From positions 9,067 to 73,066 of the forward strand of contig JAYTHE010000043.1 of NCBI GenBank assembly GCA_043732705.1: 64,000 bases of DNA. The letters run 5' to 3'. Below the pieces are notes generated by a model. It ran no database searches. It worked only from the letters and a program-made list of their open reading frames with translations, and was not told where the DNA came from. Of the stretch, positions 669 through 54,341 are shown one piece after another (position 1 is the stretch's first letter; each line of letters opens with the position of its first letter). This stretch comes from Candidatus Omnitrophota bacterium. Lineage in GTDB: Bacteria > Omnitrophota > Omnitrophia > Omnitrophales > Aquincolibacteriaceae. The translations under genes were made by a program, and so were the position numbers.

Positions 669-1086
669 CTGTGCCGGGCTCTTTTTTTCCATGCAAGGTA
701 AGTAAGCTTGACCCCAGCATCCTGCACAAGCTGTGATTTTCCGCCAAGAGTTTTTCAACAGATTGAGAGTCGGCTTTTTTGGAGTCACGCAACAGACAAA
801 GCCAATACTCGCTTTCATTTGCAGACTTCAAAGCGTAAGTAAAAAAGTTAGCAAAATCCTTCCGTGACCCGCTGCCTTTAGCCTCGATTATATTTGCCCC
901 AATGGAAGTGGCAGAGCGTAGTAATTGTTTTGTAATGATTTGAGACAAGAAATCCTTTTGAAGGGCTTCTAAAAAACGGATAATTTGAATCGAAAAAGAA
1001 TAGCTCTTTTCTTGCATTAAGGTTTTGGGTCTTGGGCTGTAGTTTTGAGCTTGAAGATTTAAGTTTTGGGTTCTTTGAATGTCCAT
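661..1086 (-). CDS. four-helix-bundle protein of the 23S rRNA intervening-sequence family
   Basis: The translation (FSIQIIRFLEALQKD...ATSIGANIIEAKGSGSRKDFANFFTYALKSANESEYWL) matches the IVS four-helix-bundle family pattern. The true start may be the internal Met near 1017, because the upstream 69 nt overlap the neighbouring gene. Confidence 0.75.
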   Translation of the reverse strand: MDIQRTQNLNLQAQNYSPRPKTLMQEKSYSFSIQIIRFLEALQKDFLSQIITKQLLRSATSIGANIIEAKGSGSRKDFANFFTYALKSANESEYWLCLLRDSKKADSQSVEKLLAENHSLCRMLGSSLLTLHGKKEPGTAL

Positions 1087-2672: not shown

Positions 2673-2962
2673 ACTGTCCTCGGCATTATTTTTCTTACCC
2701 TGCTTGATTCCTGGTGTTAGAAGAGACTCCCATCACCAAAAGATGTTGTTATCTGTTACGCCAAGCAAATTGCTTCGTATGCATAGAATATATGCATAAT
2801 ATTTATATTCGTCAATCAAAATATGCTTAATAATCAATTTTTTGATAAAATTAGGCTGTTTTGTTGAAGTTTTCTAATGTGCAGGGCATCTTTTATCTAA
2901 TACCCAAAAGGGTAATAATTTTTTTGTAACCGCTGGCTTCATCAAGAGTTGAATTCGATTTT

Positions 2963-3043
2963 GTGAAAAATAAATTGTTACTACATAAATATGTGGCTGC
3001 GCTTCTCATCGTGTGTCTACTTGTGCAAGACGCTGCATTTGCA
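2963..3043 (+). other. predicted signal peptide of the giant protein (cleavage after AFA)
   Basis: The sequence MKNKLLLHKYVAALLIVCLLVQDAAFA-HG has a basic n-region, a hydrophobic core and an AxA site. Confidence 0.6.
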
Positions 3044-6000
3044 CATGGCGGGCCACGAACTACGAGTCACGAGCCACGAAAAAAAACGTGGTCCGTGGAA
3101 CGTGGAGCGAATTTATTTAATATTTCATCTCAGCTTGGATCTATCGAGGAATCTTTCGAAGGCACCAACGGCAAAAAAATTATTTTCATTCAAGATGCGC
3201 ATGACTCGCTTGAGGCGCAGGAAAATATCACAAGGCTCGTCACGCGTTTTGTTAAGCAAGGCGTGCAAACAGTTTTTGAAGAAGGCTATGCGGGACCGGT
3301 TCCTACCGACGCTTATTTTGGCGATATCAAAGACTCAAAGATTAAACACAAGGTAAGTTTTTACTATCTGGATCACTTAAAGCTTGGCGGAGCTGAATAC
3401 GCGCATATTAACCGGCGAAGCCGGTTGGCCGGAGACCCGAGGCCCGAGGCCCGAGAGCATAAAGCAGCGAATGCTGACTGGCAGTTAATTGGAGCGGATG
3501 ATTTGCCGGCCTATCTTGAAAATGTGCGGGCTTTCGCGGATTCGGAGAAAACACGCGAAGAAATCGAAGAAAATCTGCGGGCAATATTCCGAGAGCTTGC
3601 AAATATAGCCAAAGCGAAGTTTTCAAGATCCGCACAAAGCTGGATCCGCGACCGGCTGCGTTATGAAAACAACCGTCTGACGGTTTCGGATTATATCCAG
3701 CGAACATTGGCGCCTTTTGATTTGAATGATCAGCGCAAATGGCCGCTGCTTTTTGCCGTTCAAGCAACAAGCGCTCAAAAGGAAAATGCCGAGGCGCTTT
3801 TAAGGGGTGCGAACCCGCGTGAAATTTTAAACGAGCTCGCCGCGGCGGAAACGAAGCTGGAAGCGCGCTATTTTCAAAGCGCGGAAGAAATACAGCTATG
3901 GCATTTTTTGCGGGCAGCACGAAGGCTGGCCAAGCTTTCGGAGTTACGGCTCAATCCTTCAGACCTGAATCAGCTTAAAACTGAGATGTCCGCCCTTGAT
4001 ACGGAAAAGCTCGCCGCATGGATCGCGAAAGAAAAAAGCTCGCCCGTTGTGCTTTCCAAAAAATGGGAAAGCCAAATTAAATCCGCACTGCGTTTTTATG
4101 AGCTTGCCGCGATTCGCGAGCAAGCCGTTGAGAAAACTTTGTTAGACTGGAGACGAGAGACCGGAGACAAAAGACCAACATCCGAGATGGGAGCGGGGTC
4201 TGTCCCAAGCGAAGCGCGTGGACTGACCCCTATGGTTTCTAGTCACGACCAAAACGGAACGGCCGTTTTGGTATTCGGCGGATTTCACAAAGAGGGAATT
4301 ACCGGCATGCTTCGCAAATATGGATTTTCGTATTGCGTTATCACGCCAAAGATCTCAGAGCCTTCGCTGAAACATCAAAAGCTTTATCGTGAGGCGATGC
4401 TTTCTAAGGGCCTTCGGCCTTCGGCCGCCGGGCTTGCGGCGCATGCCGCGCGCGCTCCCGATCTCTTTTTAACCATTCCGCTGTCCGCTGCCCGCACCGA
4501 AATCCGCGGACTTGCCGAATTTGCTACGCGCTCCGAAATTCGCGCGCTATCTCTCCCCGAATTTTCCTTTCAGGCCGAAAAGCGGCTTGAAGAAATTAAG
4601 CGCTCCGAAGCACGTGCAAGTGAAAAAATGGAAGATTGGATTCATAGCATTGAAAACGAATTGCGCAAGCCGAAGCCCGATTCAGCCGCGCTCGAGAAAA
4701 TAGAGGCGGCGGCGCATGCATGGGTTTTGCAGCTTAAAGGTTTAGACGGAGCAGATGAGCTGTTAAGTGACGAATATTTTGGAGCTGATTATAGAAAAGT
4801 TTCCACCGAAGAGCGCCAATGGATGCGTGTATTTTTAGCGGCGGCGGTGGTTATTTTGGCAATGGATGATCCCGATTTGAAGCAATTGCGGAAGCTGGAT
4901 GATTTAATTGGGCAATTTAATCAAAAATATAATCAAAGCAACTGGGGCTGGGCGCTGGTGCTTTTTATGAAGCTGGCGCTGAACCGGTTTGTGGTGGAAG
5001 GGCCCAAGCTTCGCACTTTGCTTAAATTGTACGGACGCGGCACGCGTCTTCCCGGTGAGTACAAATATAAAATGGCGGCCTTCACTTTACTTTTACTTGG
5101 CATGCATCTCGGGCATGACGCGGATCCGACCGACGGCCCCGATTTAAATCCGTCCAGTAGTTTAGGGCTTGCTGTTGAGACTTTAAAACATCCCGAAGTG
5201 TTAAATGAAATCCCCGAACCAATGCGCGAGGGAATTTTGGAAGCGTTGCGTGTTGGCTTGACGCATTACGTGGTTTCATCTTGGTTTTGGTGGAAAATAG
5301 GCGCACCCAAACTTAAAAAACAGCTTATTCAAAATCGTGATTTAATCCGAAGTGTGTTGGCTGAAATGAAAAGCCGTTCCGCGCAGCCGGCCGCGATTTT
5401 CGTTTTTGGACGGAAACGATGGATGAATAGGCGTTTTTTTGAAAGTGATTTAAGAAAACAACGGCCTGTCGCAGCATGGGATGAGATTTTGCTTCATCCG
5501 TTTAAGGCGGAGAATTGGAGCCCGTTTCTTCTTTTTGTTCAAGCAAGAACGTCATTTGGTTTACCTGCGCCGAACGAGACAAAGCAGCACGCAACGGACG
5601 CCGCTTATGCTCGAATTATGGATCAACTTGAGTCCTTATCAGATGAACCGGAACAACGCTCCGAAGCACGGGCACGTGAAAAACAGCCGTCGATTTTCTC
5701 AATTTTTCATCCTTGGCATGCGTGGTATTCGCTTGCATGGACAGTTGCCACAGGCAAGTGGATGTTTTATTTAGATGGTCTTCGAAAGGAGCTTGCGAAA
5801 AACAAATATGCCGCACCTGATTGGCTGGGATGGGTTCCAGACATTGCGATTACAGCTTTTGCGCTTAACTTTCTTGTTTTTTTTCTTACCGGGTTATTTG
5901 TTACAAAAGGAACAGAGCTTCGAAATGACCATCAGGAAAAAGTCGCGCTCTGTTTTGTGTTCGGAGCATTTATGTTCGTGGTTTTGGGAGAGTTTTTAAT

Positions 6001-9000
6001 TCCGCCGCCGTTAAATTATTTTGACTGGAAAGATATCGGCGCCTATTCAATTGGACTTGCTATGGCGATTACTGTTCGAGACATTGGACTGGCAAGGCTT
6101 GCGAAGAAGATCTTTTTTAAAGAAACAAAAAGTACGCGCTCCGAAATGCGGGAAGAAAAAAATGACCCACTACGAGCTGGGGAAGTTCTCCAGAAAATAT
6201 TTCGTGAAGGGACATGGCAGCCTCAAGAACTCGGAATGCTTTTCCCTGATCTCGATGATTCAGAAAAATTTCGTTTGCCCGCATTTATTTTTGAGGCGCA
6301 ACTATTCATCAAAACTCAAAACGCAAATCTCTGGGAATATCTTTCGCGTTTGCTCGTGGTTTACGTTGGTCCGGCTGGCCCCTGGCTTTATCTTTACGAC
6401 GCTGCAACCCTTTCGGTGGACCTTTTTATAATGAGCGGTGTTTTTCTCGTACTTGCCTGGAGAAGCTTCAGTCAAATCGCTTCGCTTGCGCAAACGCGCA
6501 TTCTTTTCCTCAAAGCGTTCAAGAGCGCGCATGACGCCATTATAAAAGAGCGGCAAGTCACAGCTGATTTAACTGATACAGGGGATTCGAGCGGACGCTC
6601 AGAGTTTCGGATGCCGCAGGAGCAAGGCCTTGCGAATTTAACGTTGGCGATTAATGTCATGGATTTGGGCGCGGAGATTCAGCCGGACGGGAAAATAATT
6701 TATAAAAACAGTTTTGAAAAACTGAAACAGCTGCTGCCAGTTTTGCAAGGCATGGGTATTCGAAAAATTTATCTCTATGGGCTGGCGGAAGTAAGTGAAA
6801 TTTCAAAAAAGATTCATACGGTTCCGGACGAAGGCTTGCATTTTATTTCGGGCGGTAAAGCAACTGTGATGGTTGAGACTTACACTGTGCGTCGCGAAGA
6901 AGCCGGAGAAAATGAAAAAATAAAATTAGATGATGCGCACGGCAATATTTTTTCAATTGCCGACTTGCGGAAAATAAACCCACAGTACGCGAGTAGTCCC
7001 AGTCGCGCTGAAAAAGAATTTAAAAGCCTAACAAGACTCGCGCATTCGTTGGATATCAAAATAACCGCGGATTTTATTTCTTGGCTTGCGCCCGATGCGA
7101 TCAATGAAAAGAATTATCGCCAAACATTTTATTACGAACTCTCCGAGGTGAAAAACCAGGAATTCCGTGATCAGCCGGATGAGGCAAAAAAACAAGCGTG
7201 GATTAATCAAGAGCTAGGAAGAAAAGAAGACGGCAAATTGGTTCACGGATCTTTTTTTGCGCTCCGCATTACAGAAAACGGGGCTGAGCGTGTGATCATG
7301 GTTAAACATTTGACTCCGTGGGGGGCAAATGCCGATCAAGTCATCCCTAATCCTTTTCACCCCGATTTAAAGACTTATTACAAAAATGCGCTCGAGAGAT
7401 TAATTGACCGCGGAGTGGATGAAGTGCGCGTGGATATCGGCCATATGCTGCTCAAACAAAATATGCGTGGATATTTCGAAGAATTGCGCTCCAAAGGCAT
7501 GAATCTTGAAGATTGGCTGAAGGCGAACAGCTTCGGCCTTCGCAAAAATGAAAAATTTGAAAGCTGGTTTGACCGGCAAGGCGATATGTGGCATGAGGTG
7601 GTTGATCATGCCAAGACTTATGCTATTGGTCATGGAAAGCGCATTCGTTTTACGATGGAAACGTATAGTCCGGGAGAGAAGCAAACACTTTTTGCGCAAG
7701 GTGTTAATGCAAGCTACAACAAATCCATTTTAGATACGTACGGAGAAATTGCGAAGGGGGATTTGCGCGCGTACAAGTTTGATGATCCCGTGAAACATGT
7801 TTTTCACGATCGCCCTTGGGCTCTTTCTTTTTTAACCAACTTTGACCAGCTCTCGTTGGCCAAGTTTGGCGGCCCATCCCAAGCCGGATTTATGTTGCTT
7901 GTTGCTCTTTCCCATTTGGGCGTTCCGTCTATGATCGACTTGCGGGATCTGATGCTGCATCACGGCCAAATCGCTAAAATTGTAGGGGGAACCTGGGACG
8001 CGAATGACTCGCATCATCATGCTTTTGCCGGCGAAAGCGATTTTAAAATGTATGGCGGCACTGAGGCTTTAATCTCCGAGGTTGGAAATGCCGCTCTCGG
8101 AAAAGTTCTCAAAGATTTCCAAAACATTCACCCCGGAAAAAAAGAACGCTATTTTGATATTTTGAACAATGAAAAACGCGAACGTTATTTTAGCTTGGGC
8201 TGGCTGAATGAAGATGGCGATTGGGTCATTGTCTTGTTGGATTTTTGGGCGCATGACGACAGATTGGGAGAAAAGAAAGAATTCGTCAAAGTAGGAATGC
8301 CCCCGAGCACTCCGGAAACCCATTTTAAATATCAAGATTATGATGCGGTTGATTCGGAAGGGAGAAGTCTCGCGTGGGGGCGATGGTTGGGAGAAGGCGG
8401 CGATCCGGAAGTCGTTTCCGTTCATTTTGACGAAGCCGAAAAAATGGCGCCTTATAAAATTATTAAGCTTAAACGAAAAAAAGAAGCGCCGCATTTGCCT
8501 GCGCCCGCAGCGGTTGAATTAACCCGCGAAACCATGCTTAGGCATCCTTTTCCGGAAGCGCGTTTGCGCGAGTTGGAAAAAATTCTCAGCGAGTCGGCTT
8601 ACGCGGACTTGCGCGAAGATGCGATTTTCTTCGCGCTGATGGATGAAGATTTTTTTGTGCGCGCCTATGCCGCGAATATTCTTGCGGACAAGGTAACAAA
8701 TTATAAATATGAATCGCAGCCCGAAGCCTGGATCAAACATTTTATAAATCCGCTTATGTCACTTGACGCGTTAAATGAAAAACGCATTCCCGGTCTGCTT
8801 CATTTTGACCCGCGCCGCGCCGCGCGCAATAAGCGCAATGCGCTGCTCTATGCTTTTGCCCGGCTGAGAGAAAAAAATGGAAGTGACCGGCCGGTATATC
8901 GCCGTACAGTTACCGCGCTTTTTCAAAACACACTCGAAACGCAGGCGCGCGAGTGGCAGTCGGAAAATGAATCCAAGGTTACCAAAATCTTAGCGGAGGA

Positions 9001-12000
9001 AGGCCTTAAAATGGGGGTTGGAACGGCTGAGCCGCTTAATTTAGCGGAATTGCTGCGCCTTATTTATCTGCGGCATTTACAAAAACTCAAAGTTTTGGAA
9101 AAAAATGAGAAGGACAAATTTCATTGGGTGACTACCGCTTTACAGAAAATGGTTCCCCCCAAGTCCGCGGCGGGCAAAGTTATTTTTTCTCCCGCCCGCT
9201 CCGAAATGCGCACGTTGCGCGAACAAATTTTAGAAAATGATTTTCTGAGAGAAAAATTTACCGATGAGCAGCTTGTTCTTTCTAAGCCTTTGTCTGATCA
9301 TAAAAATCATGGGCAAATTTATCCGGGAAGAAAACAAGCTGATGGAAGCCAGTTATTTATTAAAATTAACCCGCATGCGCCAGGCGATGACCAATATGAC
9401 AGTGCCAATAAGCATCTTTTGAGAGAAGCCAAGACGCTTGTTGAGTTAAACCAAAAAGGAGTCGCAGGAATTCCTAAGCTGATCCAAATCGGCATAACGG
9501 CAGGCGGACAGATTTGGCTTCGCATGGCAGGCATTCCTGATGCCCAGATGTTTATTACTGACGCCTGGGACAGTCTCGACATAGAAGACCAACTTGAACT
9601 TTTAGCACAAATGGCAGATATCATTGCAAGTGTCCACGTGCAAGGATTTTTGCATATGGATTTGAAGCCCAAAAACTTTCTATTTGCTCGGGGAAGCACC
9701 GGCAAACCACAGGCAATGTTGATTGATTTTGGATCAGCCGCAAAATTAGGTGAATATATTCGCCATCACGGGTCGGAGCTATTTGCTCCGCCCGAAATCA
9801 ATGAGTTTACGCCCGCCAAAACCCCTTTTGATGTTTTTAGTTTTGGAAGAACGTTAGAGTCTGTTTTTGGAATTTTTGCAAAACAGCACCTAACGGAATA
9901 TTTTAAAAAGAACGCGACAGAAAAAAATTTTTCTTACTTAGAAAAGTATGGGCTAGGTCTTTTAATTGAAGGCATGGTTTTAAAAGAGCCGAGCAAGCGC
10001 CTGCCAAAAACTTTTTTCGAAGTCGCGTTGATTTTGCGTGATATTCGCGGGCGTCTTTTGAATGAAAAGCCTTTGCCTTTCTGGTTTCGTAAAAAAATCG
10101 AAATCGATCAATGGCTAAAAGGTAAAGGGTATCGCGATTTTGACCGTGTCATTGCGTATCCGTTTGCGATTTCGCGCTCTGAAATGCGAACGCAAAATAA
10201 AAAAGACGAAGCCGTGCGACGCAGTGCGATATTGCGTGCGTTTAAAGAAGGTAAAATGGACGGCAGACAATGGCCTTCCGAAGCGCGATTAATTCTGGAT
10301 CTTTTTTTGCGAGGACGTTTTTCCGGGCGCGTCGCCAAAGAAATATTGGAAAAATTTTCGACTCGGACTCCGCGTCCCGAAGGCTTAACAACGCTTTTGC
10401 TTTCCGCCCAAGTTGCGTTAGAAAAAAATTTAGATGCAAAGTGGATTCCGGTGCTCGTGGCGATAAATCATTTTCCACGCAGCGGGAAAGACGTCCGGGC
10501 GCGGATAAAAGAGTACGAAAAAAATATTTATCCGAAAGCGGCACCTAAAAAGCTCAAAGAAGCCGCGGAAACGGTTTATGACCGGAGCCGGGCTCCAGAA
10601 TCAATTGCTGAAAAGGGCTTGATCGCCGGATTGAGCCATTCCACGGAAGGCTTGCATGCTGTTTTGGCGTTCGATGAAACAATGCGGCAACTCAGCGGGG
10701 AACCCAGACCGGCGATGGTAGATGTTCTCTTGGGCCTCGACCAACTAAAAAGCCGTCGGGGCGGATTGAGCGAAGAAGTCAAATTCCTTTCCGGCTGGCT
10801 GCTATTACCAAAAAATGAAATGCGGCAGCGGCTTGTACTTTGGAAAACGGCCGAGATGATGGAGGTCACAGGGCTTGAATATTTGTTGATCGATGATTTT
10901 TTACGGCGCGGCGCGAAGTCACAGCAAATCAAAGCTTATGTCTATTTATTCCAGGCGGTGACACCGGCAGCGGATGAAAGCCAAGCGCATGCGTATCGTG
11001 CGTGGATTACGGGCGTTTTGCATGAGGTTTCCACCGTCTACCATGATCGTTTCGCCAAACATTTTAAATTTAGAGAAACTACGGCAGCAACCTGGCCGGA
11101 AGCCGCGCGGAAAAAAATGCAGCGCGCCGCCGCTTATCTTTGGAATGAAATTGAAAGCCTGCCGCCGCTGCCGCCCAATGGGGAGTATCGACAGCAAATT
11201 GAGGATTTAAAACAGCTTTTAATTCTTGCGGCCAATCTGGGAGCCTCAAGCTATGTTTGGAGGATGATCGACGCGCTTTCGCCTTGGAAGCACTTTTCGG
11301 TTTTATCTGCTTTTGCCTATATGTTTGATGATGATGGTCTTCTGGATAAGGCTACCGCAAGGAAAGCAGTGCATGATTTTTTTGATGGATATGGCAAGCG
11401 CCGCGCTGAACAAGCGGATGCGTTTTTGGACCGCGTTAAAAAGTTAGATGTTTTGCAGGGCGGGTCGGTAAAAAGCATCGCGAACTATTTTAAGAAAAAC
11501 GATTCGCCTTTATTGGATGAAGGCGAAACGCGGCGCTGGCTGGAACTTATCAAGTTATTGTACGAAGGAGAAGGAAGTCTGTCGAAACAAAAAACTCCCG
11601 CGCGGTGGAAAGCAAAAGCGACAAAATTCACGCATGAAGTTACTCAAAAATTTAAAATAGATATGGCCCCCTATTATTCCGGACTGAGCGGTGTGATTAA
11701 ATACACCATTTATGAAGATGGAGAGCGCTTGGCGCTTACGATTAAAATAAAATTGCCGAACCATCCGGGACGCCCGCTCGTCCTGTTAATGGCTGCTAAC
11801 ACCGAAGTCATGTTTAATGAATGGTCCTTGCTGGCCGCGCTTTATCTTGATTTACAGAATAACCGGCGGCCGGACGCATTTGACGGCGATGATGGCGATT
11901 CTTTCGCCCGCTCCGAAATGCGGAAGGAAATGTATGGTCTTTCGCGTGAAGAAATTTCCCGCATTTTGGCTTCGCATAACCCGGCTGGAATTAAAAAAGT

Positions 12001-15000
12001 TGTGGATGACATGGAAATGGCGGTTCGTCAGCTCTCAGCTTTGGGTGCGCACCCGGCTGCGCGCGCATGGATAAAATATTTGCGCATGATGCGTGAAGGT
12101 AAAATCAATGCGGGCCATATTTTTATGCTAAAGCAGTCAGAATTATCGGAAAATGCTTTCCGACCGTTTGCGTCGAATTTCTGGAAAATAAAACTGCTGG
12201 ACGCTTTTTTTAATCAGCATCCGATTTTCTTTCCCCCTTTTCTTGGTGGAGCACAGCGCTTAATTGGGATTGCTGACTTTTGGCCCGGCCTTTTGCCAGC
12301 AGAAATGGGCGTGGAAGCGGCCAAAGAATTAAATGGCTTTATAGTTTGGTATTTATTTGAGCTTCATGACGGCCAGGCAATTCAATGGCCGGTCAATTTC
12401 CCTCTGCGGGAAATAATTCTGCAGTCTTATCTCCGGTTTTTGTCGGGGCTTTCGGGAGAAGTTATGCAAAACTTTACTCAAGAGCTGAACGAAGCTGAAT
12501 TCAGAGCGATCGTGACGCAAGCTTTGGGCGGTCTTATTGCCAGTCTCCAAGACATTGCCAAAGCGATAAAAACTGATTTGGACGAAAAGCAAAAACTGAC
12601 CGATTTGGATCGCGGAAAATTTGTGGAGTTGCTTGAAAGCGGCCACTATGGAAGCGCGCTTGCCCTGCTCCGCCAAAACGAGGCCCTTTGGAAATATTAT
12701 TTTAAATGGATGCGGCGGCTTGATTACGGCTATATGAATGCCCTGCGGTTGATGCAGCAGCTTTTGCGGGCAGGATGGGGCGAAGAGGAATATGTCCGCG
12801 AAACTGAAAGTTATTTGCATAAGTTTATTCATCTGATTGAGCCGCGCTTGATTCGCAGAATGCTGGCGCGCAATATTCTTTTTCAATTCGCGTTGTATCA
12901 ATCCATTCGCTTTAAGCTGTGGTTTGATGATGGTGTGGGCGGATATGGGGAGATTTATAATGACAACTTGCAGTTTCAATATAATTTCCTGCACTCGAGA
13001 GAAAAGACGATTCAAAAAATTATGACCCGCAAGGCTCTTAAAGAGCTGGAAGACATTGCCGCGCGTACTGCGAAGGGCCGCTATCTTCGGCTTGTTCAAG
13101 AGCTTATCCGAGCGAGATTTCTACAGCGCTCTGAAATGCGGGAACCGTTAAAAGCGTGGGTTGAGCAAGCGCTGGATGAACGGGCCGTTGTCGACCCCTC
13201 GAAAAGAGCGGAACTTTTGCGTATCTTTTCGATTATGGCCGCTGATTATGAAGAGGCAGTGCTTGATAAAAAATTTGGAATGGCACCAACAACAGTCGAA
13301 AGTTATTTACATGCTTTTGTGAAAGAAGCGCTCGGAAACCTTGATGCGGATGCGAAATGGATTGAAAAGCTTGCGCAGGGCGCACGGCTCATTTTAAAAA
13401 AGAAACTTTATCCGCATGGCTTTGTCGCCTATCCGCTGCCGGCAATTTTATCAGCTTTGCGGGAACTTAAAAAGCAGCCCGCGGAAGCGGATGCGTGGTT
13501 TCAAGCGGTTGATGAGACCCTGGCAATAAATCCAAGAATTAATCCGCAGGAAATTTTAGATGCCGCGATTGCCGCGGCAGGCGATATGGCTATATTCAAA
13601 CGCGAACTGCAAATGGTTCGTTCCGAAGCGCGAGAAATCAAATTAATTTTGCAGGGCTTCCGGCAAAACACGGAAGTTAGGGTGCTGTTCAAGCCGGAAG
13701 ATTCGGGCGATGTAAAAGCGATTCTGATCAAAGCAGGATTTGGACGTGAAAAGAAAGGCGCGCTGCGCTTGGCCGATATCGGCGAAGTTTTATTAGACGG
13801 GATTAATTTAGGAAAATTTTGGGACACAGCAGGAATTTTAAGAAACTCACAAAATATTATTGTGCGCCACAAAGATTACGAAGAGCCCCAGAAGTCCAAA
13901 CCTGTTTCAAGCGAATCTCCAAAAACAATTTTGGCGGCGGTAAAAACAGAGCAAAAAGGCCTGAGAATTTTTGCGAAGCCTTCATCGCGTCGACCAGAAA
14001 AAATAACATTTTCCTTGAAGCTTCCGCTGGATGATTTGATGACGCAGCGTTTGGAAAATTATGCCGAATGGTTCGCAACGCCAGAAGCGGAGCGTGCCGA
14101 GAAACCGCGCAACCAATTAAAATTCATTTCACTGGTAAAAGAAATAAAAACCGAGACTATTCGGATTGACGAACTTGCCACCGCTGCGGCAGAGGAAGAA
14201 AAGGGGCTGGAGGATGAACCGGGCAAGGAAACCAGCTATGTTGGATCAAATGCCAATGTTAGTGCGAAGGAAAAAGCGAAGCCCGTTGTTAAAGAATACC
14301 GGACTTTTGAAATTACATGGAATGCTCGCGAGGCAGGGGATGTTGATACCTTAAAAGGCATTCTCTATCAATTGGGTTATCAAAGCTCAATAATTCGGCT
14401 TCGATACCATTTGAATTTCGAAGTAAAGCCTGTCGCGGACACATTTGATCCGATCAATAACGGTGATGTCTTAACGGCTGTTTTGAATTCTGCCCGCAAC
14501 CGCGATGATGATCGTGAAGGTGATTTGGCTTTGGAGTCTTACACGCAGGAAATGCTTGCGAAACTAAAAATCAAAACCCCTGAAGAGCTGGCCGCTTTAC
14601 GCGCCGAGCGTGAAGAGGAGCTGATAGGCAAAATCGGCCTTAAGAGCGCTGAGATGGAAGCTTTTATTTCAGGAGATTTTCAGCCAGATAATCGGAATGC
14701 GAGTCTTTTGCACGAAGTTTGGAAAAAATATTTAGATGAGGGCATGCGCACCGCAATAATTACTTATTTTGGCTTGCAAGGAAATATCCCGGCGACCAAC
14801 AAAATTCATTTGGCCGCAGAGCTTAAAATGACAGCAACCGAATCCATCGGCAAACTAAGTATGGCAGCAGCTTATTTAAAAAATGCTTACCAGGATGGCA
14901 AATTGCCAAAAGCAAAGCCTGTCCCCAAAATAGTTGCGGTGAATCGGGAAGATGAAAAAAGCATTGTGCCACCGGAAAGTCCGATAACCACAAAAGAAGC

Positions 15001-18000
15001 GAAAGATATCAAGCCCGCGCCTGAAGTTCTTGCTCCGGCCGACCAAGTTTCTGTGTCGGAAGCCCTGACAGCTGTGCTAGAAACTAAACCTGCAGCCGAA
15101 GTCCCTGCGTCGGCGGGGGAGCAGGCAGAAGCATCAACGCGAGAACGGGAACCACGGCCCTATCTAACAATGTTTAAAACCGTTTGTCAAAAATTTCAGT
15201 TTCAAGCTTTTTCAAGACAGGAACTCTATGCAGAATTTTCCAATAAATCTAAATCTGTTATTGATGGGAGGCTTCAATCTTTTCTGACAGCGGGGTTAAT
15301 TGAAAAAGTTGAGCAAGTCAAAACTAAGCCCAGGATTTCGAGCTCAGAGAAAGCGTATAAACTAAAAGAATTTAGGGCGGATCAAACGGAGGCGCTTGAA
15401 TTCGCATTGGAAAGTTGGACTGATAAATATGACGAAAAGCTCGCTAAGTCGCTTATTGCGCGAGTGTTTTCTATTCAAAAAAAAGAACACGAAATTCTGC
15501 GCCCCGGAAAACCCAAGGAGGGAGATTTTTCACACACCGAAGGCTTTGTCGCTTTCGTTGAGTGGCTGTGGGAAGAATGGAAGCCATGGATTTCTTTGAA
15601 GCAGCCGGTTAAATTTGCGGCTCTAGGAGCGCGACTCATTAACAGCTCCAAATGGTTGCTTCCGCATCTTATGCAAAGGCTCGAAGCAAGCGGCTTGGCC
15701 GCCATAGTTTCATCTGCGGCGATTGGAATACACAATTGGATCACCATAACAAATTTTTCAGGCTGGAAGAAGGACCGTGTGAAGACAGCTCTTGAAGGAT
15801 ATCGCAAGCATCGCGATTTTCGGCGGCTGGCGGTAGAAATCAAAAATATTTTGATACAGGAAGAGCAGCCGTCCGTTGTGTCGCCACAAATGATTTTACC
15901 CGGATTCAAAGAAGTGTTTTCTCCCGCGCTCAGCGGACAGAAAAGCAAGCAGATGTCATTGCGAAAAGTAATGGAAGCGGCCGAAGTTGTTCGCCAAGAA
16001 AACGGGGATGGTTTTCTTGTAAGCACAAAAACCGTTGCAAAGCAATTGGGCGTTGCGCAAGGAGTGCTTGTCCGATTTGCAAACGATAATTCAATTCGAC
16101 TCAGCCGATTGCATATTTACACAAGGGAACCTGGCCTGAGGGGGCAACGCGAAAAAGTCCTACAAGAAATAAAGGCCGCGGCCGACCGCTTACGGGCGGA
16201 AAACCCACAGCATCAATATATGCCCTTTGCCGAAGAGGATTTAATTTTAGAAATGGGACGTTTTAAATCTATGAGTGGATTTGCATTCGAAATGAATTTT
16301 CTTAAAATTAAAGATCTCGCTTCTTATGGGGTTTTTAAAGCAAACACAAATTCGAATGACCTTCGGGAATGGTTAGATCGATATGCTGAGGTTTTGTTTG
16401 GCAAAAAAATATCAGCTGAGGCCATAAACGAAATTATGACTGTTTGGACTCCTCACAAAAATCACATAGGACAGAGCTGGAAAAAACGAATATCCCCCGA
16501 AACCGAAAAATATCTGGCGGCGCAGCAAAAATGGATACAGGAGAAACTGAAGCGCCGTGATAAGCAGCGCGCTGAATATATTCGCAGTTTAATAGATGAA
16601 GCGGTAAATGAGTATCATCTGGCGCAAAGCCAGCCTGGTTCTCCTCGTTTGAGGAAAGCAAAGTTTCGGCTTCTTGCTCTCGATCCTTTTCATCCCGCGT
16701 TGAGGGGAAAGAAAATTTCGGAAGTGGCGCCCAAAGCACCCAAGCGAGCAGATATGGGAAATAAAACGAAAAAGACAGCACCTATATTCAAACCTAATCC
16801 GATTTATGAAACGCAAGCGAAGCTGGGCGTGATCATTACGAGTCCAGCCGACATCGATTGGGAAAATCCAACGGAAGCATTACCGATTTTCAAGGAAGAC
16901 GAAGAGCTGGCTACGACAACGGAACGCGGGTATTTAAATTTAACTAAAATTCTTCCCGGTGCTTCGCTTGTGATCACCAACTTAGGGATTAAAGGAAAGC
17001 ACAAAGTATTTATTAAAAGCGGCGGCGCTGAAAACAAAAAATACAAGTTGGTGCTCCGCATTGAAGGTGTGAACGAAGAAAAAGCATTCTGGATTGGACG
17101 CTACCGGGGAAAGAGTTTGTTTGGTGTCGCTCTCGGTAAAAATCTGGACAAAGAAACTTTTGAGCTTTTAACTTTGGAAGAATGGAATGCGCGTTTTTTT
17201 GCTGAGCTTTTAACAAAGCCCGACGAGCTTTCATGGAGCCAAGCCATCGAGCCAAGCGGAAAATTTGAGGGTGTTGATCTTGGAGCGCTTAATAATTCCG
17301 GATACGGCAAAGTTTGGCTGGAGAAAAGTGTTGAGGCCGAAATTAAAATTGGCGGCAGACGGGGATATTCAGGCTATACTCCAAGACTTGTTTCGATTAC
17401 CGAACAAGACCAGCTATTAAAACTAGGAATTTTACTTACCAGCCCCGACAAAACAAAATCCGAAACCGTAGATCTGTATTTATCAGATTTGAAAGCAACG
17501 GCCCAGGGCAGTGGTTTAAAGGCGGCCACGACTGTTACCTATCGGAAACCTTCCGCGCGAGAAGAAGCTGTCGTTAATGAAATAAAGTCTGGTGAAACAA
17601 AAACCAAGCCACGCTCCGAAATGCGAGAAATCCAAAAAAATAATCCAGCGATTATGATTTGGCCAATGCAAAAAGTCGGAACAGTTTTAATTTCACGCGC
17701 CGAATTGCGGAATCTTCCCGAAGAAAATTTTCTGGCGCTTTATAAAACCGCCTACACACGTTCCGAGCTGCGTTTTTTAGTTTATGGCGAGGATTCATTA
17801 ACTGACTCCGAAGACCCCCGCGCTCAGATGCTCACCACGATTCCCAACGGGAGGGTACGCGTCAACTTTATCGGTGGTAACGAACCCAAAGCTTTGATGC
17901 GGGTTCCGGTTTCTGAACGAGCGGTGATCATAACGGGAAGAAGCGAGGCTCGCTTTTTAACTCTGCGCAAAGGAGTTTCGCGAGTAGCGGCTCAAGGCCA

Positions 18001-18148
18001 AGCCGCAATGTTGGCCTTAGGGCTTTTGTGGACAGTGAGCGATACTCCACTTAGTCAGAAGAATGGTTTTTTAAGCGATCCTTCCGGGCGTTTTACTGAA
18101 ATGACTCGAGCCTTTTTGTCCCAGCTTGTTTTTGCCTCAGCCGCTTAA
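2963..18148 (+). CDS. giant multidomain membrane-anchored protein (5061 aa) containing a Ser/Thr protein-kinase domain and recurrent RSE[MA]R motifs
   Basis: There is no stop codon for 15,186 nt. The start is GTG 2963, with in-frame alternatives TTG 2975 and GTG 2993. It lies downstream of a 290-bp AT-rich leader. A signal peptide, TM cluster, GH13-like motifs and kinase motifs are present. Codon usage matches the neighbouring genes. A perfect 15-bp hairpin follows the TAA stop. Confidence 0.85.
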   Translation: MKNKLLLHKYVAALLIVCLLVQDAAFAHGGPRTTSHEPRKKTWSVERGANLFNISSQLGSIEESFEGTNGKKIIFIQDAHDSLEAQENITRLVTRFVKQGVQTVFEEGYAGPVPTDAYFGDIKDSKIKHKVSFYYLDHLKLGGAEYAHINRRSRLAGDPRPEAREHKAANADWQLIGADDLPAYLENVRAFADSEKTREEIEENLRAIFRELANIAKAKFSRSAQSWIRDRLRYENNRLTVSDYIQRTLAPFDLNDQRKWPLLFAVQATSAQKENAEALLRGANPREILNELAAAETKLEARYFQSAEEIQLWHFLRAARRLAKLSELRLNPSDLNQLKTEMSALDTEKLAAWIAKEKSSPVVLSKKWESQIKSALRFYELAAIREQAVEKTLLDWRRETGDKRPTSEMGAGSVPSEARGLTPMVSSHDQNGTAVLVFGGFHKEGITGMLRKYGFSYCVITPKISEPSLKHQKLYREAMLSKGLRPSAAGLAAHAARAPDLFLTIPLSAARTEIRGLAEFATRSEIRALSLPEFSFQAEKRLEEIKRSEARASEKMEDWIHSIENELRKPKPDSAALEKIEAAAHAWVLQLKGLDGADELLSDEYFGADYRKVSTEERQWMRVFLAAAVVILAMDDPDLKQLRKLDDLIGQFNQKYNQSNWGWALVLFMKLALNRFVVEGPKLRTLLKLYGRGTRLPGEYKYKMAAFTLLLLGMHLGHDADPTDGPDLNPSSSLGLAVETLKHPEVLNEIPEPMREGILEALRVGLTHYVVSSWFWWKIGAPKLKKQLIQNRDLIRSVLAEMKSRSAQPAAIFVFGRKRWMNRRFFESDLRKQRPVAAWDEILLHPFKAENWSPFLLFVQARTSFGLPAPNETKQHATDAAYARIMDQLESLSDEPEQRSEARAREKQPSIFSIFHPWHAWYSLAWTVATGKWMFYLDGLRKELAKNKYAAPDWLGWVPDIAITAFALNFLVFFLTGLFVTKGTELRNDHQEKVALCFVFGAFMFVVLGEFLIPPPLNYFDWKDIGAYSIGLAMAITVRDIGLARLAKKIFFKETKSTRSEMREEKNDPLRAGEVLQKIFREGTWQPQELGMLFPDLDDSEKFRLPAFIFEAQLFIKTQNANLWEYLSRLLVVYVGPAGPWLYLYDAATLSVDLFIMSGVFLVLAWRSFSQIASLAQTRILFLKAFKSAHDAIIKERQVTADLTDTGDSSGRSEFRMPQEQGLANLTLAINVMDLGAEIQPDGKIIYKNSFEKLKQLLPVLQGMGIRKIYLYGLAEVSEISKKIHTVPDEGLHFISGGKATVMVETYTVRREEAGENEKIKLDDAHGNIFSIADLRKINPQYASSPSRAEKEFKSLTRLAHSLDIKITADFISWLAPDAINEKNYRQTFYYELSEVKNQEFRDQPDEAKKQAWINQELGRKEDGKLVHGSFFALRITENGAERVIMVKHLTPWGANADQVIPNPFHPDLKTYYKNALERLIDRGVDEVRVDIGHMLLKQNMRGYFEELRSKGMNLEDWLKANSFGLRKNEKFESWFDRQGDMWHEVVDHAKTYAIGHGKRIRFTMETYSPGEKQTLFAQGVNASYNKSILDTYGEIAKGDLRAYKFDDPVKHVFHDRPWALSFLTNFDQLSLAKFGGPSQAGFMLLVALSHLGVPSMIDLRDLMLHHGQIAKIVGGTWDANDSHHHAFAGESDFKMYGGTEALISEVGNAALGKVLKDFQNIHPGKKERYFDILNNEKRERYFSLGWLNEDGDWVIVLLDFWAHDDRLGEKKEFVKVGMPPSTPETHFKYQDYDAVDSEGRSLAWGRWLGEGGDPEVVSVHFDEAEKMAPYKIIKLKRKKEAPHLPAPAAVELTRETMLRHPFPEARLRELEKILSESAYADLREDAIFFALMDEDFFVRAYAANILADKVTNYKYESQPEAWIKHFINPLMSLDALNEKRIPGLLHFDPRRAARNKRNALLYAFARLREKNGSDRPVYRRTVTALFQNTLETQAREWQSENESKVTKILAEEGLKMGVGTAEPLNLAELLRLIYLRHLQKLKVLEKNEKDKFHWVTTALQKMVPPKSAAGKVIFSPARSEMRTLREQILENDFLREKFTDEQLVLSKPLSDHKNHGQIYPGRKQADGSQLFIKINPHAPGDDQYDSANKHLLREAKTLVELNQKGVAGIPKLIQIGITAGGQIWLRMAGIPDAQMFITDAWDSLDIEDQLELLAQMADIIASVHVQGFLHMDLKPKNFLFARGSTGKPQAMLIDFGSAAKLGEYIRHHGSELFAPPEINEFTPAKTPFDVFSFGRTLESVFGIFAKQHLTEYFKKNATEKNFSYLEKYGLGLLIEGMVLKEPSKRLPKTFFEVALILRDIRGRLLNEKPLPFWFRKKIEIDQWLKGKGYRDFDRVIAYPFAISRSEMRTQNKKDEAVRRSAILRAFKEGKMDGRQWPSEARLILDLFLRGRFSGRVAKEILEKFSTRTPRPEGLTTLLLSAQVALEKNLDAKWIPVLVAINHFPRSGKDVRARIKEYEKNIYPKAAPKKLKEAAETVYDRSRAPESIAEKGLIAGLSHSTEGLHAVLAFDETMRQLSGEPRPAMVDVLLGLDQLKSRRGGLSEEVKFLSGWLLLPKNEMRQRLVLWKTAEMMEVTGLEYLLIDDFLRRGAKSQQIKAYVYLFQAVTPAADESQAHAYRAWITGVLHEVSTVYHDRFAKHFKFRETTAATWPEAARKKMQRAAAYLWNEIESLPPLPPNGEYRQQIEDLKQLLILAANLGASSYVWRMIDALSPWKHFSVLSAFAYMFDDDGLLDKATARKAVHDFFDGYGKRRAEQADAFLDRVKKLDVLQGGSVKSIANYFKKNDSPLLDEGETRRWLELIKLLYEGEGSLSKQKTPARWKAKATKFTHEVTQKFKIDMAPYYSGLSGVIKYTIYEDGERLALTIKIKLPNHPGRPLVLLMAANTEVMFNEWSLLAALYLDLQNNRRPDAFDGDDGDSFARSEMRKEMYGLSREEISRILASHNPAGIKKVVDDMEMAVRQLSALGAHPAARAWIKYLRMMREGKINAGHIFMLKQSELSENAFRPFASNFWKIKLLDAFFNQHPIFFPPFLGGAQRLIGIADFWPGLLPAEMGVEAAKELNGFIVWYLFELHDGQAIQWPVNFPLREIILQSYLRFLSGLSGEVMQNFTQELNEAEFRAIVTQALGGLIASLQDIAKAIKTDLDEKQKLTDLDRGKFVELLESGHYGSALALLRQNEALWKYYFKWMRRLDYGYMNALRLMQQLLRAGWGEEEYVRETESYLHKFIHLIEPRLIRRMLARNILFQFALYQSIRFKLWFDDGVGGYGEIYNDNLQFQYNFLHSREKTIQKIMTRKALKELEDIAARTAKGRYLRLVQELIRARFLQRSEMREPLKAWVEQALDERAVVDPSKRAELLRIFSIMAADYEEAVLDKKFGMAPTTVESYLHAFVKEALGNLDADAKWIEKLAQGARLILKKKLYPHGFVAYPLPAILSALRELKKQPAEADAWFQAVDETLAINPRINPQEILDAAIAAAGDMAIFKRELQMVRSEAREIKLILQGFRQNTEVRVLFKPEDSGDVKAILIKAGFGREKKGALRLADIGEVLLDGINLGKFWDTAGILRNSQNIIVRHKDYEEPQKSKPVSSESPKTILAAVKTEQKGLRIFAKPSSRRPEKITFSLKLPLDDLMTQRLENYAEWFATPEAERAEKPRNQLKFISLVKEIKTETIRIDELATAAAEEEKGLEDEPGKETSYVGSNANVSAKEKAKPVVKEYRTFEITWNAREAGDVDTLKGILYQLGYQSSIIRLRYHLNFEVKPVADTFDPINNGDVLTAVLNSARNRDDDREGDLALESYTQEMLAKLKIKTPEELAALRAEREEELIGKIGLKSAEMEAFISGDFQPDNRNASLLHEVWKKYLDEGMRTAIITYFGLQGNIPATNKIHLAAELKMTATESIGKLSMAAAYLKNAYQDGKLPKAKPVPKIVAVNREDEKSIVPPESPITTKEAKDIKPAPEVLAPADQVSVSEALTAVLETKPAAEVPASAGEQAEASTREREPRPYLTMFKTVCQKFQFQAFSRQELYAEFSNKSKSVIDGRLQSFLTAGLIEKVEQVKTKPRISSSEKAYKLKEFRADQTEALEFALESWTDKYDEKLAKSLIARVFSIQKKEHEILRPGKPKEGDFSHTEGFVAFVEWLWEEWKPWISLKQPVKFAALGARLINSSKWLLPHLMQRLEASGLAAIVSSAAIGIHNWITITNFSGWKKDRVKTALEGYRKHRDFRRLAVEIKNILIQEEQPSVVSPQMILPGFKEVFSPALSGQKSKQMSLRKVMEAAEVVRQENGDGFLVSTKTVAKQLGVAQGVLVRFANDNSIRLSRLHIYTREPGLRGQREKVLQEIKAAADRLRAENPQHQYMPFAEEDLILEMGRFKSMSGFAFEMNFLKIKDLASYGVFKANTNSNDLREWLDRYAEVLFGKKISAEAINEIMTVWTPHKNHIGQSWKKRISPETEKYLAAQQKWIQEKLKRRDKQRAEYIRSLIDEAVNEYHLAQSQPGSPRLRKAKFRLLALDPFHPALRGKKISEVAPKAPKRADMGNKTKKTAPIFKPNPIYETQAKLGVIITSPADIDWENPTEALPIFKEDEELATTTERGYLNLTKILPGASLVITNLGIKGKHKVFIKSGGAENKKYKLVLRIEGVNEEKAFWIGRYRGKSLFGVALGKNLDKETFELLTLEEWNARFFAELLTKPDELSWSQAIEPSGKFEGVDLGALNNSGYGKVWLEKSVEAEIKIGGRRGYSGYTPRLVSITEQDQLLKLGILLTSPDKTKSETVDLYLSDLKATAQGSGLKAATTVTYRKPSAREEAVVNEIKSGETKTKPRSEMREIQKNNPAIMIWPMQKVGTVLISRAELRNLPEENFLALYKTAYTRSELRFLVYGEDSLTDSEDPRAQMLTTIPNGRVRVNFIGGNEPKALMRVPVSERAVIITGRSEARFLTLRKGVSRVAAQGQAAMLALGLLWTVSDTPLSQKNGFLSDPSGRFTEMTRAFLSQLVFASAA
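4819..6465 (+). other. transmembrane helix cluster of the giant protein (at least 4 strong TM segments)
   Basis: Hydrophobic stretches are IAITAFALNFLVFFLTGLFV, VALCFVFGAFMFVVLGEFLI, IGAYSIGLAMAITV, LLVVYVGPAGPWLYLY and LFIMSGVFLVLAW. There are also weaker ones such as VFLAAAVVILAM. Confidence 0.6.
6930..7990 (+). other. alpha-amylase superfamily (GH13/GH-H clan)-like TIM-barrel segment
   Basis: The pattern FSIADLRKINPQY..EFKSLTRLAHSLDIKITADFI resembles Y.xDY.IDP.YGT.EFK.LV.AH..GIKVILD. GVDEVRVDIGHML resembles GVDGFRxDxxxH (region II; R, D and H present). FTMETY carries a Glu. FLTNFDQ resembles FVxNHD (His replaced by Phe). Confidence 0.4.
8560..8700 (+). other. HEAT/PBS-lyase-like repeat
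   Basis: The sequence LRELEKILSESAYADLREDAIFFALMDEDFFVRAYAANILADK fits the HEAT-repeat pattern. Confidence 0.4.
9281..10060 (+). other. eukaryotic-like Ser/Thr protein kinase catalytic domain inside the giant protein
   Basis: There is a Gly-rich stretch HGQIYPGRK, a LFIKI (VAIK-like) Lys, a catalytic loop HMDLKPKNFLF, LIDFGSA (DFG) and ELFAPPE (APE). Confidence 0.8.
14905..15165 (+). other. low-complexity P/E/K/A-rich linker
   Basis: The sequence KLPKAKPVPKIVAV...PESPITTKEAKDIKPAPEVLAPADQVS...KPAAEVPASAGEQAEAS is low-complexity. Confidence 0.5.
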
Positions 18149-18164
18149 TGGTGCGTAGGGTATT

Positions 18165-18201
18165 TACTACCCTCCTAGCTCCCGGTGCTAGGAGGGTAGT
18201 A
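18165..18201 (+). terminator. perfect 15-bp stem hairpin 17 nt after the giant-gene stop
   Basis: The stems are TACTACCCTCCTAGC and GCTAGGAGGGTAGTA with loop tcccggt. There is no U-tract, so it may be a terminator or an RNA-stability hairpin. Confidence 0.5.
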
Positions 18202-18230
18202 AGAAAGGCTTGTTTAGTCGCACTGTCTGC

Positions 18231-20821: not shown

Positions 20822-20828
20822 AATAAAA

Positions 20829-21245: not shown

Positions 21246-21296
21246 CCTCTTTTTCTCTGCGAATTATGCCCGAGTTAGGTCATGAAAAAGTAAATG

Positions 21297-25506: not shown

Positions 25507-25675
25507 TTCAAAATAATTTTTTGTCCTGCTCGAACGCAAAACATTTTTGTGCTTGGGATTTATTCGTTGTCATTGCGAGAGAGCGTAGCGACCGAAGCAA
25601 TCTCGAGATTGCCACGTCGGCTTTCAGCCTCCTCGCAATGACGCGGTGTTAGAATTTAGAGTTTAAGAAAAGAGT

Positions 25676-54260: not shown

Positions 54261-54341
54261 TTTTTCTAGGCCGAAGTAGTTTTTAAGTCTCGAGCCTCGG
54301 GGCTTCGGCCTCCGGGCTTAAATTTCTGAAAGGAATTTATT

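Follow-up and report, generated by a model that had tools for sequence, protein, structure and literature searches.

A giant protein of the Candidatus Omnitrophota type with a recurrent pentapeptide at its module borders and a proposed head-cargo-tail layout

Members of the phylum Candidatus Omnitrophota carry giant open reading frames (ORFs) whose products have a signal peptide and/or transmembrane helices, few annotated domains and poor conservation (Seymour 2023, PMC10066038), and an architectural class with a signal peptide and transmembrane helices has been described as "multi-enzyme" (Nielsen & Lui 2026, bioRxiv 10.64898/2026.06.07.730766). Proteolytic processing of these giants is suspected, and the cleavage points were stated to be unknown (West-Roberts 2023, bioRxiv 10.1101/2023.11.21.568195). 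The published giant-gene studies leave undecided whether the products are single chains or are cut, and the missing cleavage points block a domain-by-domain analysis. Here, the giant ORF at positions 2963-18148 of the forward strand in a 64-kb stretch of DNA (64,000 nucleotides of contig JAYTHE010000043.1, hereafter called the window) was analysed. It is one stop-free frame of 15,186 nt with a GTG start and a TAA stop and encodes 5,061 amino acids (aa).

The product of this ORF very probably belongs to the Candidatus Omnitrophota giant-protein family and, judged from its sequence, is a member of a previously undelimited family that is built from a head, a train of cargo modules and a tail. In the proposed layout, a signal peptide and a TIKI-like head would be followed by exchangeable autonomous modules and by a tail of ~170 aa ending in ..S-A-A. 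As cargo, the train would carry at least five orphan modules and, besides a hydrophobic block and a Hanks-type kinase, a GH13-like barrel that is alpha-glucan-active and has a helical appendix, and the punctuation between the modules would be the peptide [S/A]-R-[S/A]-E-Φ-R. A text search of West-Roberts 2023 and Nielsen & Lui 2026 found no mention of a TIKI-like head, an Ala-terminated tail or a recurring pentapeptide, and a literature search for the motif strings gave nothing informative. The head-cargo-tail family with its TIKI-type head, and above all the dialect-bearing punctuation motif, appear to be new.

With the described giants of the same phylum the protein shares a signal peptide and transmembrane helices, unrelated enzyme domains that include sugar-active and kinase-type modules, long unannotated stretches, poor conservation between genomes and a suspected processing, as well as the many unrelated domains without a dominant tandem repeat that characterize the "multi-enzyme" class. 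The preliminary description of this DNA, made from the sequence alone, had called the architecture one that it did not recognize. This part did not stand, since the ychF neighbour and the head homologues place the gene and the related giants in Candidatus Omnitrophota, of which mosaic "multi-enzyme" giants with a signal peptide and transmembrane helices are already a described hallmark. The protein differs from the published giants in its size, as 5,061 aa are below the published cut-offs (an ORF of >20 kb; at least 10,000 aa; giant from at least 30,000 aa). The largest sampled relative has 7,546 aa, and within the shared architectural class the window giant ranks among the small members. Unlike the West-Roberts "archaeovorin" class it has no matches to SecA/DEAD, C39 or subtilisin (Pfam/NCBIfam, E<0.1), and it also lacks the dockerin domain of Omnitrophota giants.

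MARTX toxins have ~3,500-5,300 aa, which is a size class similar to that of the window giant. They resemble it in having conserved ends and an exchangeable central train of autonomous modules, and their short cleavage sites are found in inter-module linkers, where the window giant has a recurrent motif at which cleavage may occur. In contrast to MARTX, the window giant contains no RTX or glycine-rich repeats (self-comparison; no RTX/HemolysinCabind Pfam match) and no cysteine protease domain (no Pfam match; only 4 Cys in 5,061 aa, none of them within a matched domain), a Sec signal peptide at the N-terminus and a transmembrane block take the place of type I secretion, and its motif is R-S-E-Φ-R, whereas the MARTX site is Leu-X. 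In CdiA (VENN) and Rhs (PxxxxDPxGL) proteins a short peptide is located at the border between the conserved and the exchangeable part and coincides with strain-level module swapping. These proteins have one border before a single C-terminal toxin, whereas Omnitrophota giants have up to 13-22 borders; moreover, the window giant has no filamentous repeats and no adjacent immunity gene was identified. Viral polyproteins likewise combine many functional units in one ORF with a short recurrent site that differs by lineage, but the giant ORF lies on a cellular chromosome with housekeeping neighbours, contains no recognizable viral-type protease and has motifs that are probably on both sides of the membrane.

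A pentapeptide at module borders

The most informative feature of the protein, which had been overlooked in the preliminary description, is the pentapeptide R-S-E-x-R, present in 13 copies at module borders. From the composition of the protein 0.10 copies are expected, and the maximum was 3 in 20,000 shuffles. RSExR is by far the most over-represented gapped pentamer of the giant protein, every RSE tripeptide in it is followed by xR, and no RSExR could be identified in the other real ORFs of the window.

All copies are encoded on the forward strand. RSEIR at residue 523 (4529-4543), in a stretch of the head model with a low predicted local distance difference test score (pLDDT), is followed by RSEAR at residues 547 (4601-4615) and 899 (5657-5671) and by RSEMR at residue 1059 (6137-6151), which lies in a K/R-rich loop past the third hydrophobic helix. 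RSEFR at residue 1212 (6596-6610) is located 9 aa ahead of the GH13-like module, and the alignment of this region with the homologue from the related locus L001 begins exactly at this fifth motif. The kinase module is exactly bracketed by RSEMR at residue 2079 (9197-9211), its N-terminal border, and RSEMR at residue 2405 (10175-10189), its C-terminal border. Two further RSEMR copies at residues 2983 (11909-11923) and 3389 (13127-13141) and RSEAR at residue 3553 (13619-13633) precede the eleventh motif, RSEMR at residue 4884 (17612-17626), where the tail starts; motifs 12 (RSELR, residue 4933, 17759-17773) and 13 (RSEAR, residue 4993, 17939-17953) are found within the tail.

The synonymous codons differ among the copies (AGA AGC GAG GCT CGC versus CGC TCC GAA ATG CGG) and the DNA on either side of them shows no conservation, which argues for selection on the peptide. 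A DNA repeat as the origin of the motif was rejected because of the unconserved flanks and the existence of fully synonymous copies. Internal translation starts at the ATG of RSEMR were also rejected, as many copies have Ala, Val or Leu codons at this position.

The motif is not restricted to the window giant. Searches with the head identified 31 matches, all unannotated, and in addition 122 tblastn-confirmed stretches in metagenome contigs, of which the best 80 loci (L082-L161) were used as the metagenome sample. In the 79 independent head-led ORFs counted in this sample (190,203 residues), 420 copies of R[SA]ExR were found versus 12 expected. The first copy is located at median residue 539, just behind the head, and the spacing between the copies is domain-sized, with a median of 271 aa and an interquartile range of 123-472. 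Position x is mostly Val, Leu, Met or Ala, and position 2 is Ser in 333 and Ala in 87 copies. In 10 of the 11 head homologues that reach past the head, RSExR is found at residue 498-630 in an otherwise unalignable linker.

An unbiased pattern scan of the 39 relatives of at least 2,000 aa identified a dominant short motif in 12 of them, and these are 12 of the 16 relatives larger than 4,700 aa. The dominant motifs score -log10P values of 9-42, whereas shuffled sequences do not exceed 7.6. Different lineages use different dialects of the motif: RSE.R is found in seven proteins, RAE.R (RAEVR) in P0070 with 16 copies, GARL[A/S] in P0037 and P0085 with 16 and 15 copies, respectively, GARM (GARMA) in P0055, SSPV (SSSPV) in P0046 with 22 copies and SGGH (SKSGGH) in P0052 with 7 copies. 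Giants encoded on one contig have a common dialect, as could be observed for L001, for L084 and L116 and for L098 and L099. The GH13-like module is preceded, at a distance of 5-25 aa, by the dialect motif of the respective protein in 18 of 62 relatives, and SSSP, SKSGG or RAEV variants are found there in several more. The proteins with SSSPV and SKSGGH, P0046 and P0052, do not have a TIKI-like head, while the head-bearing giants carry R[SA]ExR or GAR[LM]A; P0086, with 12 RSExR copies and no detectable head, is an exception. This hints weakly, at the level of sequence, that the motif class goes with the head.

Taken from these comparisons, the motif is seen to be selected at the protein level and specific to these giant proteins, with lineage-specific dialects, and RSExR is quite likely a functional signal at module boundaries. 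Other roles of the peptide were considered. In the flanks of 241 motif instances, Pro, Ser, Thr, Ala and Glu are over-represented and aromatic residues under-represented, and Ser or Ala is favoured at positions -1 and -2. Such disorder-type flanks, together with the shortness of the motif, the low-pLDDT segment behind the head and the conservation amid variable sequence, are traits of short linear motifs, and a Ser/Thr kinase is present in cis. The peptide could thus be a docking or regulatory motif of the linkers that is bound or modified by a partner (Ser phosphorylation, a chaperone, a secretion factor) with the scaffold left intact. However, the 87 Ala-containing copies and all RAEVR motifs imply that Ser phosphorylation is not the general function, all other sampled motif-bearing family members lack a kinase module and a partner was not identified, and this explanation is therefore considered quite improbable.

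Even less probable is that the peptide has only a structural role, for example as a helix cap or as an R...E...R salt-bridge staple, in the connectors of one membrane-anchored multi-enzyme scaffold. The charges at i, i+2 and i+4 could indeed form intramolecular salt bridges, motifs 12 and 13 are within the tail domain, and AlphaFold2 predicts helices through motifs 1 and 11 with low confidence. But a generic staple would not be restricted to one family, and the motif was found neither elsewhere among the ORFs of the window nor in large ORFs at loci outside the Omnitrophota. A structural role also gives no reason for the switch to the chemically unrelated dialects GARLA, SSSPV and SKSGGH.

Processing or module exchange at the motif

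In the proposed reading the gene would be a chromosomal polyprotein gene and an analogue of MARTX. The chain would be exported or inserted into the membrane via the signal peptide and the transmembrane block, and a dedicated endopeptidase would recognize the motif, by which the cargo modules would be released or become independently mobile. The same motif would mark the joints of module exchange. The head is one candidate for the cutting enzyme, and the cargo, an alpha-glucan-active enzyme and a Ser/Thr kinase, would be delivered at the envelope or to a partner cell. The lineage-specific dialects fit this proposal, as a processing enzyme would be expected to co-evolve with its lineage. The proposal infers a direction of export and an involvement of the cargo in the interaction with a host or prey, and the link to a host-dependent or predatory lifestyle is taken from the Omnitrophota literature. 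That the motif is a signal for proteolytic processing has a slightly less than even chance, and the statement as a whole, which is a polyprotein-like head-cargo-tail giant including the motif-directed processing mechanism, is evenly balanced. It appears unlikely that RSEΦR and its dialects (RAEVR, GARLA/GARMA, SSSPV) are a lineage-specific cleavage code of operon-replacing chromosomal polyproteins which are cut by the TIKI/TraB-like head or by a co-evolving trans-acting peptidase, and which release their enzymes, for example the GH13-like glucanase and the Hanks kinase, either at the surface of the cell or into a host or prey cell.

Several observations weigh against motif-directed processing. 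Processing is deduced and no cleavage was observed, and no classical protease motif or domain could be identified in the giant ORF, neither HExxH nor GDSGG. Autoproteolysis with Ser as the nucleophile was rejected, as position 2 of the motif alternates between Ser and Ala. For the head, no sequence-level match was obtained in Pfam, in NCBIfam or by profile against the PDB, and no Foldseek match of the head model was significant, the top one being the Ere-family structure 3b55 (E 0.16). An enriched motif is absent in 27 of the 39 relatives of at least 2,000 aa, mostly the shorter ones, and the 1,909-aa homologue at L010 has no motif either. The sequence context of motifs 12 and 13, within the tail, is strand-like (..RSELRFLVYG and ..RSEARFLTL). 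By crude hydropathy, motifs 1-3 are probably located across the membrane from motifs 4-13, and across the family the number of hydrophobic segments between consecutive motifs (Kyte-Doolittle value of at least 1.6) was odd in 60 and even in 27 pairs. Motifs on both sides of the membrane would be awkward for a single protease and especially for a periplasmic head. Finally, a codon bias within the motif leaves room for a role at the level of nucleotides or of recombination: the first Arg is encoded by CGY in 80% of the copies (background 39%), the last Arg leans to CGG (41%), and Ser is encoded by TCC in 57% (background 23%) and by AGY in 4% (background 30%).

These points bear on the main rival explanation, in which the motif is a demarcation or recombination joint at which modules are swapped between paralogous giants and the chain is not cleaved. 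In agreement with such a joint, the CGY-TCC-GAR bias suggests a common ancestry of the copies by copying or a constraint on the DNA, motifs are predicted on either side of the membrane and one dialect is common to the giants of one genome. The extreme turnover of the cargo also speaks for it. Compared with the window giant, the giants of L001 share only scattered modules with 27-37% identity, although their YchF is 93% identical, and L082, which has a head with 57% identity and the same divergent BNR-like neighbour, has no detectable shared cargo. The GH13-like module is found at many positions and the kinase only in the giant protein of the window. Among ~130 related giants or fragments, no relative was found for the inter-motif segments beyond the head, the GH13-like module, a 250-aa sub-module and the tail. 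From these sequence comparisons it is concluded that the cargo modules turn over very fast. However, 15 nt are too short for homologous recombination and the flanking nucleotides are not conserved, while fully synonymous versions of the motif and a free codon for the last Arg point to a constraint on the peptide. The scarcity of AGY is accounted for by a neutral network between Ser and Ala (TCN/GCN), which does not cover the preference for TCC and CGY. In addition, a mere scar would not be expected to persist in unalignable linkers across heads that are only ~33% identical. A joint without proteolysis is therefore considered rather unlikely.

Head, cargo modules and tail

The anatomy given in the preliminary description was largely borne out by the analysis of the individual modules, and its HEAT-like repeats were not confirmed. 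When the complete protein was compared with Pfam and NCBIfam, as had been proposed there, the kinase was the sole match above a curated threshold, so that matches making the protein a member of a well-characterized family, which would have spoken against that description, did not appear. A phmmer search against all PDB sequences also returned kinases only, word-indexed homology searches with residues 1217-2404 and with the last 500 aa gave zero matches, and when the giant protein was used to scan GTDB genomes and JGI metagenomes by patterns, a close orthologue did not appear.

Sequence reading and hydropathy predict the expected signal peptide at residues 1-27 (2963-3043), which ends in ..LLVQDAAFA|HG, and an equivalent N-terminal hydrophobic segment is also found in the relatives. 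It is followed by the head domain at residues 28-522 (3044-4528), which resembles TIKI/TraB/erythromycin-esterase hydrolases and contains a helical insertion of ~220 aa. The head is N-terminal in 31 of the 38 related proteins that have at least 1,500 aa and start with Met. Its invariant residues are D78-x-H80, E106/E107, E145, H148 and R151, of which D78, H80, E106 and E107 are invariant in an alignment of 24 head sequences, and GGFH (H442) is part of the family consensus. The RRSP effector has a 2His/2Glu signature consisting of E-x-H, ~27 aa, E and a distant H (PMC6254334), and the spacing D78-x-H80-(26)-E106/107 ... H442 of the head parallels E3900-x-H3902-(27)-E3930 ... H4030 of RRSP; this assignment was made by sequence spacing without superposition.

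The best structural neighbours of the head model all belong to the TIKI/TraB/Ere/ChaN/RRSP superfamily: the erythromycin esterase EreC (6xcq, score 8.9), the EreA-like structures 2rad and 2qgm (8.9 and 8.1), a TraB-family protein (8bqs, 8.9), the MARTX effector RRSP (5w6l, 8.1), ChaN (2g5g, 8.0) and HopBA1 (5t09, 7.4). In MARTX, RRSP is an effector with a TIKI-type fold (PMC6254334), and for the head of the window giant this fold is moderately supported by the structure model. Like the members of this superfamily, the head keeps the arrangement [D/E]-x-H ... E ... H, but it differs from them in the lack of a sequence-level match, in the Asp at the position of the first Glu and in its helical insertion. 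By sequence, the catalytic-type D-x-H...E...H signature of the head is intact.

The cluster of at least four transmembrane helices that had been noticed before corresponds to a hydrophobic block at residues 621-1165 (4823-6457). By hydropathy alone, three strong hydrophobic 19-mers (residues 961-979, 995-1013 and 1147-1165) and four weaker segments (621-639, 662-680, 1025-1043 and 1126-1148) were identified as candidates.

The alpha-amylase-superfamily-like segment turned out to be wider than first described and is assigned to a GH13-like (clan GH-H) barrel module at residues 1221-1766 (6623-8260). The single sequence is below the threshold of Pfam PF00128 (E 0.008, 15.9 versus 22 bits), in contrast to GH13 proteins, but a profile of 14 sequences searched against the PDB aligned over regions I-IV with a best E of 1.8e-7. 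The 60 matches listed were all GH13-fold chains, among them amylases, cyclodextrin glucanotransferases (CGTases), glucosidases, a pullulanase, a sucrose hydrolase and rBAT. As in GH13, the catalytic residues are kept: D1491 (with R1489 in RVDIGH), E1566 (METY) and D1628 (TNFDQ) are invariant in the 14 family members and align with GFRLD, xxE and NHD of the GH13 chains. Unlike in GH13, another residue stands in place of the conserved His in region I (DFISWLAPD) and in region IV (TNFDQ). An exhaustive search identified 96 relatives of the module, located between residue 18 and residue 5155 of proteins with 56-7,546 aa, and stand-alone versions are found as proteins of ~620-790 aa. The modules form their own clade, almost only within giant proteins. 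In some relatives one of two recurrent small domains precedes the GH13-like module in place of the junction motif (QHGWGxDxYQI / GGWHxRVPGxxRFQxLEW); relatives with such a small domain are P0059, P0060, P0074, P0077 and P0092, and P0067, P0082, P0086, P0087, P0090 and P0096. The small domain and the GH13-like module look like fixed module pairs in these sequences.

The helical region behind the barrel (residues 1856-2078, 8528-9196) had been read as HEAT-like. It is homologous to stand-alone proteins of ~400 aa, and residues 1830-2078 gave no Pfam match at E<0.05; one homologue showed a faint match to HEAT_2 (E 0.02).

The protein-kinase catalytic domain could clearly be identified. The Hanks-type Ser/Thr kinase module spans residues 2084-2404 (9212-10174), with a Pfam match to PF00069 at residues 2116-2301 (9308-9865) of 55.5 bits against a cut-off of 31.7 (E 7.4e-15). 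The motifs HMDLKPKN (2231-2238), DFG (2255-2257) and APPE (2275-2278) are intact, while the Gly-rich loop is degenerate and has no GxGxxG (..LSDHKNHGQIYPGRK..). Candidates for the VAIK Lys in LFIKI (residue 2134) and for the alpha-C Glu in LLREAK (residue 2155) were assigned by inspection only. No homologue of the module was found among the ~130 related giants or fragments. A defence-system kinase (PglW, MADS6, LanL) was rejected, as the NCBIfam scores were far below the cut-offs and limited to the kinase core.

Behind the kinase, the orphan module at residues 2410-2982 (10190-11908) has no match to a family, the PDB or a relative, and that at residues 2988-3388 (11924-13126) has no family match. 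The long orphan stretch at residues 3558-4883 (13634-17611) contains the P/E/K/A-rich linkers that were noted before, at residues ~3985-4060. It also includes a sub-module at residues 4617-4868 (16811-17566) which is shared, with 37% identity, with the L001 giant upstream of ychF.

The tail comprises residues 4889-5061 (17627-18145) and its structure model is poor (pLDDT 54.6). The last 160-330 aa are recognizably conserved only in the close relatives L001, L010 and P0072. In 45 of 46 complete relatives and in 31 of 37 complete ORFs of the independent sample the C-terminal residue is Ala. The usual ending in the family is ..[S/T/A/R]-[S/A/M]-A after an amphipathic helix (STSA, AWSA, ARSA, ARMA, SSAA), and the window giant ends in ..LVFASAA, of which FASAA is encoded at 18131-18145. 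Some of the C-termini in the family look like junction motifs (GARMA, RSE..), and there is a likeness to the ..TASA end of HlyA-type type I secretion signals.

The gene and its genomic setting

For an ORF of this length it has to be weighed whether the assembly is chimeric, or whether the frame is fused or degenerate and its expression does not give a single protein. The source is probably a metagenome assembly, and giant genes often break assemblies, as is seen for P0029, which is at contig ends in 16 contigs. However, the product is identical to a protein of 5,061 aa in a public protein library (P0032, 100%), the order GC1>GC3>GC2 is unchanged across all ten 1.5-kb slices, and the relative synonymous codon usage correlates with that of 15 neighbouring housekeeping genes (r=0.81, compared to r=0.51 in the +1 frame). 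The head is at the very N-terminus and the tail (..SAA) at the very C-terminus, as in complete relatives, 13 in-frame motifs are distributed over the whole length, and the independent relatives P0033 and P0036 have the same order of head, GH13-like module and tail. An artefact can therefore be given almost no weight, and the early descriptions of a single 15.2-kb ORF with the codon usage of its neighbours were confirmed. The absence of adhesin- or toxin-type periodicity was also upheld, since no internal repeats were found by self-BLAST, and an adhesin or RTX-type protein was ruled out on this basis.

The ORF is preceded by the AT-rich leader of 290 bp described earlier (2673-2962, forward strand; 33% GC versus ~47% for the window), which separates it from a divergent gene with BNR-like repeats. 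Inside the leader, a small terminator-like hairpin (TACCCAAAAGGGTA) with a T-run is located at 2901-2924 on the forward strand, ~40 nt upstream of the GTG. No forward-strand gene ends at this hairpin, and it could be a regulatory element or due to chance. The perfect 15-bp hairpin reported behind the stop codon is present and extends to 17 pairs, of which 16 are Watson-Crick and one is G-U (18163-18203, forward strand; arms 18163-18179 and 18187-18203; dG -34.9 kcal/mol, z -3.8). It starts 15 nt past the stop codon and has no T-run, so that it is not a consensus intrinsic terminator. As ychF begins at 18327, which is 124 nt past this hairpin, read-through and co-transcription of the giant ORF and ychF are possible.

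The window is part of a bacterial chromosome, with genes for YchF, RF3, aconitase, isocitrate dehydrogenase, citrate synthase, SucC, cytochrome c biogenesis and CtaA/CtaB. The adjoining ychF is 93% identical to that of L001, ~73% to that of four metagenome-assembled genomes (MAGs) and 68-70% to those of named Candidatus Omnitrophota MAGs, and the head homologues are labelled Candidatus Omnitrophota/Omnitrophica by NCBI. A look-up of the exact YchF protein gave no record. In 7 of the 10 closest loci, ychF adjoins giant ORFs, which range from 900 to >3,300 aa and of which many are truncated by the edge of the locus. Locus L001 contains giants on both sides of ychF, at L001:2-9889 and L001:11130-19274, with at least 3,296 aa and 10 RSExR copies and with 2,715 aa and 3 RSExR copies, respectively. 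Based on the sequences, the site flanking ychF in L001 and in the window is syntenic yet hypervariable.

The divergently transcribed neighbour of the giant ORF (1059-2672, reverse strand) encodes a secreted protein of 537 aa which has Asp-box/BNR-like repeats (SKDAGKSW, SADGMTWT), is helical in its C-terminal part and gave no Pfam match. The protein is conserved with 33-52% identity at 12 further Omnitrophota loci (L002, L003, L007-L010, L012, L082, L132, L138, L143 and L144), where its gene is found next to ychF or immediately upstream of a head-led giant, and it may be a functional partner of the giants. The regions 20336-29148 and 53175-61891 contain a pilin-like N-methyl gene, ResB/CcsA, CtaA/CtaB for haem A synthesis, an ABC-2 exporter and, as a tricarboxylic acid (TCA) cycle cluster, isocitrate dehydrogenase, aconitase, citrate synthase and SucC. 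This gene context indicates a respiratory Omnitrophota lineage, unlike the fermentative profile with a broken TCA cycle that is reported for most Gorgyraeia genomes. No tRNA genes and no Rfam families at the gathering threshold were identified in the window.

Among the features of Omnitrophota, the giant genes stand out most and are understood least. An over-represented motif at module borders turns the question of whether the giants are cut, and where, into a hypothesis that is directly testable, and effector trains of the MARTX type may have a cellular counterpart in the head-cargo-tail family with its TIKI-type head. If the motif and its dialects were a cleavage code, one could predict from the motif which mature products any of the giant proteins of this phylum gives rise to. 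If the motif were only a recombination seam, it would still explain the rapid shuffling of cargo in giant genes.

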